A DNA stretch of 64,000 nucleotides from Escherichia phage vB_EcoD-Elw, in the sequence record OR621298; one strand, written 5' to 3'. The translations under genes were made by a program, and so were the position numbers. Numbering within the stretch: position 1 is the first letter of the stretch; the number at the start of each line of letters is the position of its first letter. A model generated the notes under the pieces. It did no database searches. It was not told the DNA's origin and saw nothing but the letters and a program-made list of their open reading frames with translations. Shown here piece after piece: positions 3,033-57,401 of this stretch.

Positions 3033-3849
3033 ATTAATTATTATTAGCGGTGCAGGTTTGAGTGTTGAAAGTGGTGTACGAGCTTTTCGTACTGATACTG
3101 CTAGTGGTAAAGCACTGTGGGATGATTATGATCTAGAAGAAGTATGTAATATTCATGCCTTTCGTGGTAATTTTTATCATAAAACCCATATGTTTTACAA
3201 CAAGCGTCGTGAAGAGCTAAAAACTGTTGAACCTAACCTTGCGCATCTTCGTATTGGTGAGTGGTATAAACAATACCCAGGTCAAGTAGTAAACTTGACT
3301 ACCAATGTTGATGACCTTATTGAACGTGCTGGCGTTCCACATAGTGACATTCTGCACATTCACGGATATTTAAAAGAGGTTGTTGTAGCTGACAGCTACA
3401 ATAGTAGTAATAAACGAATTATTGATGTTGGGTATAACTCTATTGACCCAGATGATTATAAATGGGTTAAACCTAATGTAATCTTCTTTGGTGAGCATGC
3501 TCCAGCATATACAGAAATGTACAATGTTTTTGATGGTATTACCAGTCAAGATATGATCATTGTGGTTGGTTGCTCTAACCAAGTAATTAACTTCTACTGG
3601 GAATTATTTCCTGTTCTTAATTTGACTGCTGCCAAATTAATGGTAGTTAACTACTATGATAGTGCCCTAGCGACAGAGCCGGGCTACCAAGGTATGACTC
3701 GTAGTGAGATGTACCAGCTGGAAGAACGCGGTATCCCTTACTGGAGTAAAGGGGCTGTAGATGCCTTCAGTGACCCTGATTTTATTGCTCGTGTAGAAGC
3801 TCATCTAGAGGGTAGACCTTATATGCCGGGGAAACAAATATGTCCATAA
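3025..3849 (+). CDS. SIR2-like NAD-binding protein without a Zn-ribbon
   Basis: Sirtuin motifs ISGAGLSVESGVRAFR, TTNVDDL, IHGY, KPNVIFFGE, VVGCS; no CxxC...CxxC pair. Confidence 0.6.
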   Translation: MRRLIIISGAGLSVESGVRAFRTDTASGKALWDDYDLEEVCNIHAFRGNFYHKTHMFYNKRREELKTVEPNLAHLRIGEWYKQYPGQVVNLTTNVDDLIERAGVPHSDILHIHGYLKEVVVADSYNSSNKRIIDVGYNSIDPDDYKWVKPNVIFFGEHAPAYTEMYNVFDGITSQDMIIVVGCSNQVINFYWELFPVLNLTAAKLMVVNYYDSALATEPGYQGMTRSEMYQLEERGIPYWSKGAVDAFSDPDFIARVEAHLEGRPYMPGKQICP

Positions 3850-50953: not shown

Positions 50954-52876
50954 TTAGGTAAGGCGTTGAATTATAAGTTTAATATTTGGTAAGCATGCTT
51001 TCATGCCAATTATATTGCTCATAGAGGATTCTAACCAAATAGAGATATTATTATTTCCATCATTTCTCATATAGTATGTTAGAGTATAGTAACCCGTTTG
51101 ACCTACGGATCCTGGCAACCCAGATACCCAGTACGGAGTTGGAGTATACCCAGCAGCCTGTAATTTACAAGCATTTACTACAGTACCTTTAATAGTAAAA
51201 AATGGTACATATTCTCCTGCAGGTAGGGACAATATTTGGTGAAGTTTTTTATCAATAGTATTGCCACCCATTCTAAACCTACTATCGCCATATTCAGCGC
51301 CTTTAGATAGCATTTCCGTAGGATTAAAGCAGCCAATACCTCCTGCAGACAACCATGTGTCATCTAGGAACTCCATAGTACATACAATTGCACCATTTCT
51401 ACTACTATTAAGATCTAGTCCCACGGTACCAACATGCACGGAACCATTACCCTGAAATACTATGTTACCAGATAGTACAGTACTTCCGCTACCACCTAGA
51501 AGTCTTAAAGGTAGAAGATTTTCACTCCAAACGTCCCCATAATTACTCCCTATTTTTGGAGGATTACTAGAAACATACCAAGATGCTGAAGGTAAAAAGT
51601 TATAAATACTAACTACATTAGTATTTAAACCACCAACGTTACCACCCTTAATACTTGGTGCGTTATTGCTTTCTGTGGTTGGTAGTCCAAATGTTGCTAT
51701 GCCAGAGATCCCAGTAGAGGGGCCACCCATACTCAAGTTACACCCAACATCACGAAAATCAGCTCTGCTCCCTACATTAAAGTTTTTCTCAACAAAGTTG
51801 ATAAACTTCCAAGATGTATTATTAACGTTAATACCTTTAATAATAAATTCAGTGGGGCTTAATTTTATATCATTACCTGTAAATAATCCAGCATCAATAC
51901 TATAACCTGAACCATTATACACTAAGTTAGTAACATACCAGGTAATTTTAGATGGATAAATACCGAGGTGCTCACTATATATACCTATGGGCCCATTAGC
52001 AGCATCATTCGGATCACCCATACTTTCCCAATACGCATAGTTAGTGGGATCAGCACGTGCGAAACCTACAGAGTACTTAGGAGCCGAGGGATTGCTAGGA
52101 TTAGACATAAAGTTAAGAGCCCCTGAACTCGACGCCCCATGTACAGCTCCAGCAGTGGTGTAGTTGGGCCCTTCCATACCATAAAGAACTCTATTACAAG
52201 ACCTACCACGAACATATATGGCGTTAAATCCAAAGTTTCTAGCTCCGGGATGCCTAACGTAGTCGCTAGGGATAGTTAGAGTTCCTGAATCCGGCACTAC
52301 ATATCCTGAACCATCCCAGGCAGACTTATAAAGAGCGGCACCCCCTAAATACATTGCACTAGATGCAAACCCTCTACGCCCACTAAAGGCGCCAAACATA
52401 TGCTGACATCCAGTACCGTCTCTTAATTTCTGGGGGATCGTACCGCTAGTACCACTATTAAAATAGCCTACATCAAGAGATAGATCAGCACTAGCTGTTA
52501 TTTGTGTTTTTAAACCACCTTGAGACATGACCTGCGGATTTATAATTCCATACGCTTTAGCTCCTACCCCCATAGACATGCCAGATAGCATATGTCTAGA
52601 GCCATCTGAGAACTCAATCTCTGTCAGCACAACCCTATTAGGATCATTATTATGTAACTGGGTAATTCTGCTAGGCATATCAGACCAGTAGTAATCTCCA
52701 GCACCTTGATCTAGCCTCAACCCTGTGGAGTGAGTTTCTGTTATGATAACATGGGGCATATCTGAATGGAATATGGTCTGAGAGTCAGGATTAATATGTT
52801 GATTAGTATCTCCGCCACTACCCCTGCGTAGAGAGAGTATAGATTTGTTATTTAGCTTGCCAGCGAAAAAACTCAT
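50954..52876 (-). CDS. oad: receptor-binding tail protein (pb5-like)
   Basis: 640 aa; Gly/Ser/Asn-rich beta-type sequence; last late gene, beside an llp-like lipoprotein gene as in T5. Confidence 0.7.
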
Positions 52877-52895: not shown

Positions 52896-52924
52896 TTGCT
52901 TATGTTGCTATAATTCTGTATAAT
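52896..52924 (+). promoter_or_regulatory. sigma70 promoter for the llp-like gene
   Basis: TTGCTT 52896-52901 and TATAAT 52919-52924, 17-bp spacer; leader ataaattaaacagaggag. Confidence 0.65.
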
Positions 52925-52955
52925 AGTATTATAAATTAAACAGAGGAGAATGTAA

Positions 52956-53189
52956 ATGAAAAAATTATTTTTAGCTATGGCAGTGGTACTTCTTTCGGCT
53001 TGCTCTACTTTTGGGCCTAAAGATATTAAATGTGAGGCCTACTATGTACAAGATCATGTGAAATATAAGGCTAATGTTTTTGATAGAAAAGGGGATATGT
53101 TCCTGGTGGCACCAATCATGGCCTATGGATCTTTCTGGGCTCCAGTAAGCTACTTTACCGAGGGGAATACATGTGAAGGAGTTTTCTGA
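52956..53189 (+). CDS. llp: lipoprotein Llp-like (receptor-blocking superinfection exclusion)
   Basis: 77 aa; lipobox LLSAC; convergent with the receptor-binding gene. Confidence 0.75.
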   Translation: MKKLFLAMAVVLLSACSTFGPKDIKCEAYYVQDHVKYKANVFDRKGDMFLVAPIMAYGSFWAPVSYFTEGNTCEGVF

Positions 53190-53301
53190 GGAGAATCCCT
53201 CCCATAAACCCATGCCACTTAGGGTGGATCCTAGGTCAAAACTAGTTCACAATGCAATTGAGGTCATTCAGAACACCATATAAGATAAAATGTTATGACT
53301 T

Positions 53302-53487
53302 GTGCAATTGCTAGAATATTCCAAATACCACATTTACGGGAGTATGAAAGACATGTCAAACGGCAACAAAAGAAAGAACAGACGTGGAGAAGTGTACGAT
53401 AGCTGGATTAATAGCTTTGGGTTCGGAACTATTCTATTCTTTATTTTCGTAGGTTTTTGGTTAGCAGCTATGGCGGGGTGGATCTAA
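53302..53487 (+). CDS. small membrane protein (start uncertain)
   Basis: 61 aa with a C-terminal hydrophobic helix; internal ATG at 53344 is an alternative start. Confidence 0.4.
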   Translation: MQLLEYSKYHIYGSMKDMSNGNKRKNRRGEVYDSWINSFGFGTILFFIFVGFWLAAMAGWI

Positions 53488-53594
53488 TGGACTGGGTAAT
53501 TATTGCACTACTGGGGATTGTGATTATTGGGCAATGTATCTTAGATAATCACTTAGCTAGAATCGAAACCTTACTATCGGAGAAACGTAAATGA
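53487..53594 (+). CDS. small membrane protein, 35 aa (not in ORF track)
   Basis: ATG 53487 overlaps the upstream TAA; encodes MDWVIIALLGIVIIGQCILDNHLARIETLLSEKRK. Confidence 0.35.
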   Translation: MDWVIIALLGIVIIGQCILDNHLARIETLLSEKRK

Positions 53595-53785
53595 TGGAAG
53601 TGGCAATTACACTAATGGTAATATTAGTCTGGGCAGTTTTCATTATTTATTACACCGTGTACGTTCGCCTAAAAACGCTAGAAGCTCAAGTGAAGCAACA
53701 GCAATTTGCTATAGAAAAACTATCAGAATTGCAACGTTGTGATAGTACCCGTATTCTGCAAATTGGGAGGGAATTAGATGTTTAG
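53591..53785 (+). CDS. small membrane protein
   Basis: 64 aa; N-terminal TM helix; ATGA overlap with the upstream stop. Confidence 0.4.
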   Translation: MMEVAITLMVILVWAVFIIYYTVYVRLKTLEAQVKQQQFAIEKLSELQRCDSTRILQIGRELDV

Positions 53786-54023
53786 TATTGTAATTGCTTT
53801 TATTATCGGGATACTCGCGGGGGTTTTCGGGACAACTGCGGCAATCAACAAGCATCGTAAATATATTGCGGGAGTGACGCGGGAGATTGCGGAAAGGGAG
53901 CGGAAGTTTGACGAGAAACGTGCGGAGTTTGAGCGAGAATGGTCGGATGGATCTCGGGCGTCGCGGAAGAGATTTCGTGAGTTTAGACCTGAACATCTGT
54001 TTGATGACCCTTCTATGCGCTAA
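53778..54023 (+). CDS. small membrane protein with charged C-terminus
   Basis: 81 aa; N-terminal TM helix and Arg/Glu-rich tail; may straddle a terminal-repeat boundary. Confidence 0.35.
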   Translation: MFSIVIAFIIGILAGVFGTTAAINKHRKYIAGVTREIAERERKFDEKRAEFEREWSDGSRASRKRFREFRPEHLFDDPSMR

Positions 54024-54174
54024 TTTGACTTTTGCCAAATTTCATAAGATTACACATGGAGGTGTGTCCACTGGCTGGCTAGATGAGAATGAGTCTCATT
54101 ACCGCCCGGTACTTAGCAGGCTAATAGTCACGGCATGTTATCATTACACACCGTGACTATTTCAACTTTAATTA

Positions 54175-54909
54175 TTACGCAACTTTTAATTTCTCAATAT
54201 ATTGTTGCGGGCTGCAACTATATTCTGCGCGTTCTTCCTCGGTCATACTTTCCCAACATAATTGCAGGCGGTCGGCTAGGAACTGATAATCATTATCATC
54301 CTCAAGAGATTCATCAATAAAGGTTTCACCTATCAATGTAACCCCAATCGATAGAATATCGTTAACGGCTTGCGCGTCCAGCGTTTTAAATCCGTATGAT
54401 GCCGCCGCTGATAGCACGCCTTTATGATCATCAATCATCGTGAAATCAGCGTTCGGATATAATTGTTTAAATAACTCAAAGTAATGGCTTTTATAAATAG
54501 CGTCTTTGCTGTGGTATATCTCGCTAACTTTATCAGCCTCAAAATATTTGTGTAGTGTATCGCGGGAAAATACACGGATATTACTATCCCCACGCCCTCG
54601 CAATCCTTGTTTGCGCAAATAATAATAATCCGACTTGCTCATTAGTCGAGCGGTGCAAATAATGTTTAACGTGTTAACGTCATTCATACATTGGCGCATA
54701 TATGTAACAAGGGGCAATAGTGTATCTTGCATTATTAAATCATGTTTGCAGGCTTCATTTTTATACTTATTTAAATCTAAATTGCCCTCGCTATCAAAGC
54801 AAGGCGCTACGCGATGGAAAGAATTAATGATAGTGCCGTCCAGATCCCAAATCATGACGCGGGAAATATGCGGGAAATTACGGGTAATATTCGTTTTAAC
54901 TTGATTCAT
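54175..54909 (-). CDS. dmp: HAD-family 5'-deoxyribonucleotidase (dmp-like)
   Basis: 244 aa; HAD motif I WDLDGTII and C-terminal MIDDHKG; first gene of the pre-early block. Confidence 0.7.
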   Translation of the reverse strand: MNQVKTNITRNFPHISRVMIWDLDGTIINSFHRVAPCFDSEGNLDLNKYKNEACKHDLIMQDTLLPLVTYMRQCMNDVNTLNIICTARLMSKSDYYYLRKQGLRGRGDSNIRVFSRDTLHKYFEADKVSEIYHSKDAIYKSHYFELFKQLYPNADFTMIDDHKGVLSAAASYGFKTLDAQAVNDILSIGVTLIGETFIDESLEDDNDYQFLADRLQLCWESMTEEERAEYSCSPQQYIEKLKVA

Positions 54910-54989: not shown

Positions 54990-55382
54990 TTAAAGACCAT
55001 ACGCCAACGCATCAGCAATAAAACTAATATCTTCACCAGATACACCGGAACGAATGCCCGCGCAGGTATATACCTTTGCGCTGGTCAATTGATCATCGAG
55101 GCAAGCGGGGCAAGGCGCGACAACTGCAAAGGCTAGGCCGGATTTTACGGCGTCGATGATAATCGTTTCTTGTTTCACAGTGTCAACATAAACACCTTTT
55201 GCTTTAATATGGCTAGTTAGTTTACCTTGCGTATAGGCAAAGGTAGTAACCTGCAAAGCGTCGTTAAAGTCCAATAGCTCATCAATAACGTGCCCCGCCT
55301 CGACGTGGTAACGTTCACCATTAGAATAAACCAGAACAATGGAAGATTGAGCGCGATCGAATGGGATATTTTGCTTTTTCAT
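54990..55382 (-). CDS. hypothetical pre-early protein
   Basis: 130-aa ORF. Confidence 0.45.
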   Translation of the reverse strand: MKKQNIPFDRAQSSIVLVYSNGERYHVEAGHVIDELLDFNDALQVTTFAYTQGKLTSHIKAKGVYVDTVKQETIIIDAVKSGLAFAVVAPCPACLDDQLTSAKVYTCAGIRSGVSGEDISFIADALAYGL

Positions 55383-55736: not shown

Positions 55737-57401
55737 TTACGCAAAAAATTTACCGTTCTTAAAATCGATCAAAGTACGCTGACCATTTGCATAGGTAATT
55801 AAATGCGTTTGTGTCCAGCTTGACGCGCCAACGTTGTAACCCATGTCCAGACTACCAGCCACGCCAGCGGTATATACCCCGCCGTAAATGCTGGCGGTAT
55901 GAGTGTGCCCCGTGTTTAATTTGCCCAATTTCTTAAACTGTTTCGGATTGCCACGGCTGCCGTTTATGCCATTGTGACCGTGTACGCCGCATTCAATGCC
56001 TGCAATTTTAAATGATTGGTCAGTCGTTAGGAAAATGGCGTTAAACTCGCAACCTGCAACCTTACGCAGCGCATAATCTAGCACGTTGAAAGTATCGTCT
56101 TTTTCTGCAATAGCTCCGTAAATCGCGGCATTCAGGCGGTGATATAGTTCCGCGTTCGCTGGGTCGTCTTTAATGTTAGCATTACGATCATCAAGCCAAC
56201 GGGATAGCGCCAAATCGTGATTCGATTCAACAATGATTGTTTGCGAGAAATCGCGCTCCATTGATTCCAGTACGCGCCCCGTATCGATGAGATCATCCAG
56301 AACTTTATCACGTCCGGCGGCGTATTGTTTTGCTAGGAATACACCCGAAGCGCGGTTGTGATGGTTGCGTGATGTAAAATCGTGAACGTCATGGATAAAC
56401 TGATATTTTGGTTTAAGAATATCAAGCAAGCTATTTTCGCCAGCCCATGACGCAATGGCACAATCATCATCAAGTTTTTCGGCGTGTATGTCGCCATATT
56501 GCAAGCCTAAAACATGCCCCGATGTTTCATAGCATCCGGCGGGAGTAGCGCAAACATTCAGATCATAAAACACCCCGCTTTCGTCCATTGTTTCAAGCTG
56601 GCGAACAAAAAACTCACCGTCTTCGTCGAACTCAACAATCAGCGCACCGAAGTTATGCAGTGCTTCCGCTTTCTGTCCTGCTTTCTGCTGGATGTAATTT
56701 TTAAGCGTTGCCGTGCCAGTTGAATACATGCGGCGCACTACTTCACCTTTTAAAGCTGGCACGCTTTCGGCGGTGATTTTAGCGTGACCAATTGCCAGAC
56801 CTTCCAGATTAAGCGCGGTTGCAGTTTCAGCGAATCCAGAAAGCGGATAATCTGCGGTGGGCAAAACATTAATTTCAGCCATGAAAGCAAAACGGCGATT
56901 ATTCAAAAACACGTTTTTGCTGCAAATATATTTATCGAACGCGGAATCATATTTTATTCCATCCGCGCCCTCGCCATTTTGGAATCCGTTTTTATTATAA
57001 ATATACTTGCTAACCAGCAAATCAGCGCCGATATATTTAGCAAATTGCTCCAGTGAGGCTAAAAAGTTTTTATGCGGGAACGTATTATTCTGAATCGATG
57101 TAATAATAAAGCGTTTGCCTTGTTTTACTTCCCAGCTTTCCACCGTGCTAGAAACAATCCCCGCCGCTTCTGGGCGCTCATCGTTTTTAATGGCTTTTGC
57201 TACTTTCGCCGCTTTCGGTTTCGCTGGTTTATTTGCTTCCAGCCAATCACAAATAGCGGTGGAATGTTTTGGAGTATCGTAAACCGCTTTTGATATATCG
57301 TCACAAACTTCCAATTTAGTGGCGCGCAGGCGTTTACCGTAGAAATTAAAGTCAGCGGCCATTTTCAGGATAACGGTTTGTTTTTCTGCGGAAATAATCA
57401 T
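55737..57401 (-). CDS. A1: A1-like pre-early protein, metallophosphoesterase-fold nuclease
   Basis: 554 aa; calcineurin-like motifs GDIH, ESNHD, HGH, GHTH; size close to the 556 aa I recall for T5 A1. Confidence 0.7.
   Translation of the reverse strand: MIISAEKQTVILKMAADFNFYGKRLRATKLEVCDDISKAVYDTPKHSTAICDWLEANKPAKPKAAKVAKAIKNDERPEAAGIVSSTVESWEVKQGKRFIITSIQNNTFPHKNFLASLEQFAKYIGADLLVSKYIYNKNGFQNGEGADGIKYDSAFDKYICSKNVFLNNRRFAFMAEINVLPTADYPLSGFAETATALNLEGLAIGHAKITAESVPALKGEVVRRMYSTGTATLKNYIQQKAGQKAEALHNFGALIVEFDEDGEFFVRQLETMDESGVFYDLNVCATPAGCYETSGHVLGLQYGDIHAEKLDDDCAIASWAGENSLLDILKPKYQFIHDVHDFTSRNHHNRASGVFLAKQYAAGRDKVLDDLIDTGRVLESMERDFSQTIIVESNHDLALSRWLDDRNANIKDDPANAELYHRLNAAIYGAIAEKDDTFNVLDYALRKVAGCEFNAIFLTTDQSFKIAGIECGVHGHNGINGSRGNPKQFKKLGKLNTGHTHTASIYGGVYTAGVAGSLDMGYNVGASSWTQTHLITYANGQRTLIDFKNGKFFA

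Follow-up and report, generated by a model that had tools for sequence, protein, structure and literature searches.

A T5.159–T5.162-like cassette of four small membrane-protein genes beside llp in Escherichia phage vB_EcoD-Elw, with a possible accessory role at the inner membrane

The four small overlapping ORFs (o1 to o4) that follow llp in the window, the whole 64,000-nt stretch of DNA of the T5-like Escherichia phage vB_EcoD-Elw analysed here (record OR621298), are almost certainly genuine genes and the orthologues of phage T5 genes T5.159–T5.162. The cassette is not new, as its T5 annotation dates back to 1994/2004. The most likely view of its role is that of an accessory complex in the inner membrane. 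The best overall explanation, that of an orthologous cassette with a dispensable accessory function exerted at the cytoplasmic face or in the core of the inner membrane, is one to which we give slightly better than even weight. T5 is a classical model phage, and the cassette lies beside its well-studied llp/pb5 module. The practical gain of the analysis is a cleaner gene model, which concerns the start of o1, the remnant of an additional gene (o0) and the optional nature of o3.

T5.159–T5.162 are also named ORF148–151 in AY587007 and orf1–4 in X75922, the llp sequence of 1994, and each of them is annotated in T5 as 'contains single transmembrane domain'. The amino acid identities of o1, o2, o3 and o4 to their T5 counterparts are 95, 91, 81 and 86%, respectively. 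Gene order, strand, the location from llp to the right terminal repeat and the stop/start overlaps are all identical in T5 and in the window, with only minor differences: in the window, o1 has 2 additional residues and o4 departs from its T5 counterpart over the last ~8 residues. Each ORF matched a PHROG family (Table 1) over the whole profile, with E-values of 1.7e-30 (o1), 3.5e-25 (o2), 8e-31 (o3) and 5.1e-47 (o4).

The junctions, as read from the sequence, are TAATG for o1/o2 (1-nt overlap), ATGA for o2/o3 (4 nt) and an 8-nt overlap for o3/o4. Shine-Dalgarno-like motifs (GGGAG, GGTGGA, GGAG and GGGAGGG, from o1 to o4) are located 5–10 nt before each start and, like the overlaps, are conserved. 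Comparison of 24 loci (T5 and 23 IMG/VR relatives) bore out the conservation that the earlier note had proposed to check: o1 and o2 are intact in 24/24 and the junctions are kept in 24/24, including loci with three-gene and five-gene variants of the cassette. Sequence variation falls mostly at third codon positions. Pooled dN/dS extends from 0.12 to 0.38 over the four genes (Table 1), with 0.34 for full-length o4 and a lower value for its core (residues 1–66), while o1 and o2 read in shifted frames gave omega values of 0.36–3.2. As judged by this pattern, o1–o4 are protein-coding and under purifying selection, and four real, overlapping small ORFs on the same strand are present as first described. 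That some or all of them could be fortuitous and non-coding, with the last one an artefact of the repeat junction, is hardly credible: all four are of very small size, o4 is overlapped by an antisense ORF of 109 aa (53709–54038) and o1 or o4 is left unannotated in some public records, but purifying selection is confined to the annotated frames, the reading frames are intact across hundreds of genomes and o4 variation was calculated to sit where the antisense ORF would have its first codon positions, a conservation pattern by which we regard the non-coding reading as refuted.

The suspicion raised earlier that the last ORF might be fortuitous or run across a terminal-repeat boundary is likewise not borne out. 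This ORF has the best PHROG match of the four, its core shows purifying selection and 41 bp separate its stop from the T5-equivalent start of the repeat downstream, a boundary placed by T5 homology. In T5, Kenya-K44 and chee24, the annotated repeat likewise begins past the position of the o4 homologue. This alignment places the cassette in unique sequence, a short distance before the right terminal repeat. The location observed, with llp on one side and the pre-early block (dmp, the T5.002/T5.003 homologues and A1) on the other, is as claimed.

Table 1. Cassette genes and neighbouring features, in positions of the 64,000-nt window
Feature	Position	Strand	Basis
Sigma-70-like promoter before llp (TTGCTA-16-TATTAT)	52905..52932	+	Consensus scan; T5 early llp promoter at equivalent place
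llp, FhuA-blocking lytic-conversion lipoprotein, 77 aa	52956..53189	+	97.4% aa identity to T5 Llp
o0, decayed fifth gene	53173..53402	+	Fragments 53173–53283 and 53295–53402; three-frame translations
o1, T5.159 orthologue, 44 aa	53353..53487	+	PHROG 8596; conserved start; dN/dS 0.12
o2, T5.160 orthologue, 35 aa	53487..53594	+	PHROG 6369; intact in 24/24 loci; dN/dS 0.18
o3, T5.161 orthologue, 63–64 aa	53591..53785	+	PHROG 5851; dN/dS 0.30–0.38
o4, T5.162 orthologue, 81 aa	53778..54023	+	PHROG 6447 'membrane protein'; core dN/dS 0.22
T5-equivalent terminal-repeat start	54065..54073	+	T5 left-end TGTCCACTG aligned; T5 right-repeat junction
Terminator-like hairpin, 11 + 3 bp stem then U-rich stretch	54123..54161	+	RNA fold z = -2.69
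dmp, deoxynucleoside-5'-monophosphatase, first pre-early gene of the repeat	54175..54909	-	98% aa identity to T5 Dmp

Concerning gene limits, the lengths of 35, 64 and 81 aa given in the earlier note for the last three ORFs stand, and the 61 aa given for the first does not. In the mechanical listing of + strand ORFs, o1 started at a GTG (53302–53487, 61 aa), o2 at an ATG (35 aa), and o2, o3 (64 aa) and o4 (81 aa) had the limits shown in Table 1. The ATG at 53353 is the sole o1 start conserved in the 24 loci and gives a protein of 44 aa, compared to 42 aa in T5. Further upstream, neither ATG 53344 nor GTG 53302 is conserved, and the 61-aa form was rejected as an over-extension.

A single 17-residue hydrophobic window (Kyte-Doolittle mean 2.2–2.8) was found in each protein, in agreement with the one helix per ORF initially noticed. 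In o1, this TM helix is C-terminal and preceded by a basic N-terminal tail carrying a conserved RRGEVY(D/E)SWIN; in o2, it is N-terminal and followed by a short basic C-tail (LARIETLL). The o3 protein reads as an N-terminal TM helix with a ~44-aa tail, helical or coiled-coil in appearance. Similarly, o4 includes an N-terminal TM helix and a highly charged tail, of which the last ~14 residues, beyond the core, are mosaic; its AlphaFold2 model is a single helix covering residues 2–69 (pLDDT 70).

The N-termini of o2–o4 carry no positive charge and their basic residues come after the TM helix, whereas o1 has its basic tail at the N-terminus and only 4 residues beyond the helix. Uncharged N-termini combined with basic tails lead us to predict a C-in orientation: o2, o3 and o4 would insert N-out, with their basic or helical tails facing the cytoplasm, and o1 would insert N-in as a tail-anchored protein. 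The soluble tails are thus predicted to be cytoplasmic, with almost nothing in the periplasm. Translational coupling would bring o1–o4 together to the inner membrane, where they may well assemble into a hetero-oligomer with an o1-o2-o4 core, o3 and an o2 paralogue (see below) being optional subunits. For such an inner-membrane hetero-complex, we consider the chances evenly balanced.

In terms of distribution, o1, o2 and o4 are core genes and o3 is optional. o3 is absent from 7/24 loci and truncated in L016, and phage records with o3 number 193, compared to 447 with a tblastn match to o1, so that o3 is missing in over half. Some relatives carry a tandem 51-aa paralogue of o2 (hhalign of o2 against the 51-aa ORF, 95%), whereas a common ancestry of o2 and o3 was unsupported by hhalign (17–30%). 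The variant cassettes of Markadamsvirinae (bas31_0187–0191 of Bas31, NBSal005-like and STG2-type, e.g. L025) share the o1-o2-o4 core with identical coupling and include three-gene versions without o3 and five-gene versions with the o2 paralogue. In these cassettes the C-terminal variants of o4 go together with downstream insertions, which include HNH genes and take the place of the o4 C-terminal tail. Natural internal deletions of o4 also occur.

Many of these variants also have an intact upstream o0 of 104 aa (at 2323–2637 in the L025 copy), of which only a remnant is present in the window. By tblastn, 248 phage records match o0, 235 of them with at least 80% query coverage; in oldekolle, the closest record for the region, the match is limited to residues 65–104 (38% of the query). 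The cassette itself is conserved whichever receptor/llp module the phage has, and in phages with a different llp homology picks up again ~40 bp upstream of o1.

Beyond these phages, members of the o4 family were sought among 5.8 billion proteins by word index and, exhaustively, among 1.84 billion representatives with an HMMER profile. The family is confined to E. coli/Salmonella T5-like phages, the only other hits being two low-complexity false positives, and no remote homologue can lend it a function. Positional analogues were found in the Klebsiella Sugarlandvirus DevonBitter, where CDS0173 (74 aa) and CDS0172 (153 aa), between the RBP gene and dmp, occupy the location that o1–o4 have in the window. 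Like the window proteins, both show an uncharged N-terminal TM helix (starting MEVVI/MTIVL) followed by a charged helical tail. However, there are only two genes; similarity of CDS0173 to o3 is marginal (hhalign probability 62%), CDS0172 shows none to o4 by hhalign and the annotation of the DevonBitter stretch examined includes no counterpart of o1 or o2. Among distant Demerecviridae, Proteus Novosibvirus has no positional analogue, an array of soluble proteins of ~115–126 aa being present instead, and nothing comparable was found in Vibrio PG07.

In the window, o1–o4 probably form one early unit with llp. They would share a transcript that starts at the early promoter of llp and ends at the hairpin within the repeat. 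The sigma-70-like promoter detected before llp likely drives the whole llp–o4 unit. The T5 annotation shows the same layout, with early promoter P41 before llp, no promoter in the interval from llp to ORF148 and a terminator past ORF151. No terminator-like structure was detected in the llp–o1 spacer (RNA fold z = -0.29), and the hairpin of Table 1 is situated inside the repeat, between the convergent o4 and dmp. At the equivalent place T5 has a hairpin of different sequence, annotated as a putative rho-independent terminator. The o1 gene could have a promoter of its own in a conserved TA(G/A)AAT box located ~35 nt before it; the box has no -35 element and its region overlaps the decayed o0 frame.

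Published RNA-seq data for phage Bas33 give access to the timing of expression (PMC13250531 Dataset S1); the Bas33 genes were assigned here by matching gene lengths and overlaps to Bas31, not by Bas33 sequence. At 20 min, TPM values are ~130–220 for the llp homologue, 140–160 for the o2 paralogue and 410–460 for o3. When infection is arrested after first-step transfer, all three fall to ~0 TPM (PMC13250531 Dataset S1) and the pre-early genes are unaffected (PMC13250531). The Bas33 cluster is therefore transcribed only after second-step DNA transfer. Counts are very uneven, with o1 and o2 near 1 TPM and o4 at 13–22 (PMC13250531 Dataset S1). The near-zero o1 and o2 values may result from a read-assignment problem with overlapping genes of ~110–130 nt; alternatively, the differences could reflect uneven expression.

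These data bear directly on an involvement of the cassette in the pre-early functions of the terminal repeat or in the two-step injection of the phage's own DNA, an injection-related role being among those envisaged in the earlier note. We consider such a role very improbable. The genes are immediate neighbours of the pre-early block and encode membrane proteins, but they lie outside the repeat, ride on the last DNA to enter and, in Bas33, yield no transcripts upon first-step arrest. In addition, T5.159–162 were all scored 'Not Fit' by CRISPRi-ART in T5, i.e. knock-down had no measurable fitness cost, whereas A1 and A2 were the top Fit genes (PMC11879866). The injection or pre-early reading is effectively refuted by these results.

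Since CRISPRi-ART overlooks some essential genes, 'Not Fit' is no proof of dispensability. The natural loss or truncation of o3 and the internal deletions in o4 also count towards it. We found no functional study of T5.159–162 in the literature, and the T5 growth-inhibitor screen covered T5.002–T5.017 only. PHROGs label the cassette families as unknown-function or 'membrane protein' only. No similarity to known exclusion, holin, spanin or defence-related families was found in PHROGs, Pfam, NCBIfam, PADLOC or PDB: PADLOC returned nothing, and Pfam, NCBIfam and PDB gave sub-threshold matches only, of the 'TM plus charged helix' kind.

Among the functions that an accessory inner-membrane complex might have, superinfection exclusion is the likeliest single candidate, though in itself still rather doubtful. 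The cassette would block DNA entry of superinfecting T5-like phages without receptor dependence and would complement the receptor-specific block exerted by Llp at the outer membrane. The llp product of the window matches PHROG 1119, 'Cor superinfection exclusion protein' (E 1.4e-18). Because almost nothing is predicted in the periplasm, incoming DNA could only be blocked within or beneath the membrane. The cassette adjoins llp in the same orientation, is expressed after second-step transfer, appears dispensable and is kept across receptor/llp modules, which all fit with exclusion. Llp alone is reportedly enough for the lytic-conversion phenotype. In its boldest form, the proposal is that of a receptor-independent inner-membrane exclusion complex of 3–5 co-translated mini-proteins acting on any T5-like superinfector or, more broadly, of a small-protein complex acting on a host inner-membrane machine; we regard this as unlikely, if conceivable. 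If a second exclusion layer or host-membrane effector were borne out, T5 biology would gain a mechanism based on small proteins, with a bearing on the design of T5-like phage cocktails.

A host-takeover or anti-defence module, which would inhibit an inner-membrane protein of the host by binding to it and matter only in particular hosts or conditions, is also an unlikely explanation, though one with several points in its favour. Proposed targets range from proteases and transporters to division or envelope-assembly factors and abortive-infection effectors anchored in the membrane. The cassette appears dispensable on a laboratory K-12 host, its lineage restriction and variable gene content are those of accessory or counter-defence loci, and cytoplasmic tails would suit protein-protein contacts. 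There is also a sub-threshold architectural likeness to bitopic regulators (LapA_dom, DivIC, FtsL and ZapG-like). However, the Pfam and NCBIfam matches all fall short of the curated cut-offs and a TM helix followed by a charged helix accounts for them, the PADLOC search brought no hit and o1 and o2, both core genes, show high conservation (dN/dS 0.12–0.18) instead of fast diversification.

The regulation of lysis timing, by antiholin-like or holin-modulating proteins that would target the T5 holin either from within the membrane or from its cytoplasmic side, had also been suggested and is disfavoured here as quite improbable. Lysis regulators are typically small proteins that span the membrane once, and loss of the cassette would go tolerated in plaque or fitness screens; moreover, T5.041, the T5 holin, also has a single TM segment, which makes a membrane-anchored cytoplasmic partner conceivable. 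Nevertheless, the T5 lysis cassette is complete and located ~90 kb away, at 19.9–23.2 kb (lys T5.040, holin T5.041, Rz-like spanins T5.044/045), holin, antiholin and spanin families were unmatched in PHROGs or Pfam, and the predicted topology includes no periplasmic sensor domain. An identity as i-spanin (Rz-like) was considered separately and rejected: the predicted orientation is C-in and not N-in/C-out, T5 already has T5.044/045 and no spanin PHROG was matched.

The accessory inner-membrane complex that we prefer can be compared with two sets of known proteins. Bitopic regulators (LapA/YciS, FtsB/DivIC, FtsL and ZapG) share the layout of a TM helix and a juxtamembrane helix, but all matches were under the family cut-offs; in particular, o4 against LapA_dom (LapA/YciS, PF06305) reached 21.9 bits (E 1.6e-4) and fails the Pfam gathering threshold of 28 bits. 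FtsB and FtsL also form periplasmic coiled coils, whereas the tails of the cassette proteins are predicted to be cytoplasmic. The second set, T4 Imm and Sp, HK97 gp15 and P22 SieA, comprises small, membrane-embedded and dispensable proteins encoded beside or alongside other exclusion functions. No sequence or profile similarity to these proteins was detected. In contrast to them, the cassette is a multi-protein and coupled set of single-pass proteins with predicted cytoplasmic tails. It resembles them in that its products are small, membrane-embedded and apparently dispensable, and in having an exclusion function as a neighbour, in this case Llp.

The ORF listing and similarity searches identify the window as DNA of a T5-like siphophage (Demerecviridae, subfamily Markadamsvirinae). 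Both also agree with the earlier note in placing the four small ORFs (o1 to o4) between llp, the gene of the FhuA-blocking lytic-conversion lipoprotein, and the minus-strand pre-early genes, of which dmp (deoxynucleoside-5'-monophosphatase) is the first. The closest DNA match to 52900-54200 was Salmonella phage oldekolle (91%), and T5 matched over the full length at 84%. The four ORFs are the T5.159, T5.160, T5.161 and T5.162 orthologues (amino acid identity 95, 91, 81 and 86%, respectively). Each of these is labelled 'hypothetical protein; contains single transmembrane domain' in AY543070, and the same four genes are ORF148-151 in AY587007 and orf1-orf4 in X75922, the 1994 llp/oad/dmp sequence. 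Annotation of the feature thus predates this analysis, and the window supplies only one more orthologous copy of known genes. In several GenBank records, mini-gene or llp homologues carry plainly wrong product names (among them 'lysozyme', 'tail fiber protein', 'tail assembly protein', 'H-N-H endonuclease', 'receptor blocking protein'), and o1 or o4 is unannotated in others (oldekolle, chee24). The 130-aa gene beside dmp is a homologue of T5.002 (hypothetical protein) and not A2, which lies on the far side of A1 in the T5 map.

The four ORFs were found as described, with overlapping starts and stops (o1/o2 TAATG, o2/o3 ATGA, o3/o4 8 nt, as read from the sequence) and a Shine-Dalgarno-like motif ahead of each start. 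The proposal of one hydrophobic helix per protein was borne out by a single strong 17-residue window in each (Kyte-Doolittle mean 2.2-2.8), and each protein matched its own PHROG family across the full profile (E 3.5e-25 to 5.1e-47). Conservation was assessed in T5 and 23 IMG/VR relatives (24 loci): o1, o2 and o4 were whole at all 24 and the junctions were kept. Substitutions in o1-o4 cluster at third codon positions. Pooled dN/dS in this sample was 0.12 for o1, 0.18 for o2, 0.38 for o3 (0.30 leaving out one divergent sequence) and 0.34 for o4 (0.22 for residues 1-66 alone), and omega in shifted frames of o1 and o2 was 0.36-3.2. Chance ORFs are effectively excluded as a reading of o1-o4. The length of 61 aa given to the first ORF was not upheld, as the sole start kept across relatives is ATG 53353; neither GTG 53302 nor ATG 53344 is conserved, and in one relative the o1 frame opens right at the conserved ATG. 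From this start o1 has 44 aa in the window and 42 aa in T5. A 109-aa antisense ORF overlapping o4, similar to one in L025, is spurious and non-coding by its substitution pattern, because the variable columns of o4 are its would-be first codon positions; the abundance of GAR/AAR/CGN codons in o4 keeps it open.

The suggestion that o4 might cross a terminal-repeat boundary does not hold. In the alignment, the start of the T5 genome (TGTCCACTG...) falls on window 54065, 41 bp past the o4 stop. The T5 right repeat is annotated 42 bp after T5.162, and the repeats annotated for Kenya-K44 and chee24 likewise begin beyond the position of the o4 homologue. Two hairpins lie just within the T5-equivalent repeat start, the first of them, right at the boundary, having two sequence types among relatives. 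The T5 sequence at the second, terminator-like one differs, yet equivalent pairing is kept. T5 annotation gives a putative rho-independent terminator after ORF151, within the repeat, and an early promoter before llp, with none ahead of ORF148. The llp-o1 spacer showed no significant structure (fold z = -0.29). A second promoter might lie at a conserved TA(G/A)AAT box some 35 nt ahead of o1; this box lacks a -35 element, and a decayed reading frame runs across it.

Locations of features in the window and, where a locus is named, in relatives
Feature	Location	Strand	Basis
pb5/oad, receptor-binding protein gene	50954-52876	-	ORF listing + similarity
llp promoter-like site	52905-52932		scan of window
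llp	52956-53189	+	ORF listing + similarity
llp-o1 spacer with decayed o0 remnants	53173-53402 (fragments 53173-53283, 53295-53402)		
o1	53353-53487 (53302-53487 in the ORF listing)	+	ORF listing
o2	53487-53594	+	ORF listing
o3	53591-53785	+	ORF listing
o4	53778-54023	+	ORF listing
Antisense ORF, 109 aa	53709-54038	-	
Hairpin at repeat boundary	54070-54110		
Strong hairpin then U-rich stretch, terminator-like	54123-54161		RNA fold
dmp, pre-early	54175-54909	-	ORF listing + similarity
T5.002 and T5.003 homologues, pre-early	beyond dmp (130-aa T5.002 homologue 54990-55382)	-	ORF listing + similarity
A1, pre-early	55737-57401	-	ORF listing + similarity
o0, whole copy	L025 2323-2637		
Extra 51-aa ORF	L015 and L016 2555-2710; Bas31 bas31_0190 (L034 2242-2397)		
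Insert 3' of o4 (HNH gene in L020)	L015, L018, L020, around 3243-3716		

The cassette has o1-o2-o4 as its core and o3 (T5.161) as an optional member. In tblastn searches o1 matched 447 phage records and o3 only 193. The latter was cleanly absent from seven of the 24 loci (L004, L005, L007, L014, L020, L021, L023), where a 34-aa o2 variant is coupled straight to o4, and carried a premature stop in another (L016). Conversely, L015, L016 and Bas31 have an extra 51-aa ORF between o1 and o2, TAATG-coupled, making a five-gene cassette; it is a clear tandem paralogue of o2 (hhalign 95%, E 2e-8). The last ~14 residues of o4 (compared over 53975-54023) occur in at least five versions, and some homologues have internal deletions or a frameshift. 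Several alternative tails coincide with another gene inserted directly downstream: in L020 an HNH endonuclease gene whose start overlaps the o4 stop, with which L015 and L018 align, while in L017 and L023 the inserted gene is a different one. L021 keeps an alternative tail without insert. The cassette is kept whatever receptor/llp module a phage has; where llp differs, homology restarts ~40 bp before o1.

Upstream of o1, many relatives carry a fifth gene, o0; its 3' end and the o1 start overlap in different frames. Its 104-aa product is acidic with a basic C-terminus and an AIAR(I/V)(F/Y)QIPHL motif, and tblastn matched it in 248 phage records (235 at 80% or more query coverage). L021 has a frameshifted copy, T5 and the window keep fragments of the gene, and oldekolle matches residues 65-104 only. 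In L020, another HNH gene lies between the o0 remnant and o1.

In the o1 protein, a strictly conserved RRGEVY(D/E)SWIN motif marks the basic N-terminal tail, and the TM helix lies at the extreme C-terminus, followed by only 4 residues; this protein is therefore predicted to be N-in and tail-anchored. The other three open with the TM helix; no positive charge precedes it and basic residues follow, and these proteins are therefore predicted to be N-out/C-in. The o4 tail is strongly charged (17 K/R in 64 residues), and AlphaFold2 gave residues 2-69 as one unbroken helix (mean pLDDT 70). All four are predicted to show the periplasm almost nothing, so that any activity would lie inside the membrane or on its cytoplasmic side.

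In a transcriptome-wide CRISPRi-ART screen of T5, T5.159-T5.162 were all 'Not Fit' (fitness -3.86, -3.55, -4.11 and -3.60, respectively; P 0.24-0.91), A1 and A2 being the top Fit genes (PMC11879866). This is good, not absolute, evidence of dispensability, because CRISPRi-ART misses some essential genes. For RNA-seq of the Tequintavirus Bas33, genes were assigned by lengths and overlaps (129/156/108/195/246 nt, identical to Bas31). At 20 min the assigned llp-like gene, o2 paralogue and o3 had TPM of roughly 130-460, o4 had 13-22, and o1 and o2 were near 1; upon daunorubicin arrest after first-step transfer, the assigned llp-like and cassette genes were at ~0 and pre-early genes were unaffected (PMC13250531). 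For the two shortest genes, the near-zero values may be an artefact of how reads were counted. Our literature search found no paper on these four genes, and a T5 growth-inhibitor screen covered T5.002-T5.017 only.

The evidence best fits a dispensable accessory set expressed only after second-step transfer. Through translational coupling the o1-o4 products would be made together, and they probably come together in the inner membrane, tails on the cytoplasmic side. No sequence feature of the cassette hints at an unusual mechanism. Among specific functions, receptor-independent superinfection exclusion ranks first, as a tentative candidate of low probability, because the cassette adjoins llp in the same orientation, is dispensable and is conserved with the phage backbone, not with the receptor module. 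Second, and somewhat more doubtful, is a role in anti-defence or host takeover. Lysis regulation, suggested previously, appears distinctly unlikely, since T5 has a complete lysis gene set elsewhere (lys T5.040, holin T5.041, Rz-like spanins T5.044/045) and the predicted topologies include no periplasmic domain. That the genes serve the phage's own injection is effectively excluded.

A search of 5.8 billion proteins with o4 gave 82 clusters, each of them from T5-like phages or contigs of these, and an exhaustive HMMER profile search of 1.84 billion representatives returned only family members and two low-complexity matches. The records matching o1 are nearly all Salmonella and Escherichia phages, whereas dmp occurs in 908, Vibrio, Klebsiella and Proteus phages included; the cassette is therefore specific to Markadamsvirinae. 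Comparable genes were looked for in Proteus and Vibrio relatives and none was found. Klebsiella Sugarlandvirus has two genes like the cassette in architecture and position, whose similarity to o3 is marginal at best. In Klebsiella phage DevonBitter these are CDS0172/0173 (L035 3861-4550); they sit between the RBP gene and dmp, and their products have an uncharged N-terminal TM helix and a charged helical tail; the 74-aa protein begins MEVVI, as o2 and o3 do, and its profile similarity to o3 is marginal (62%).
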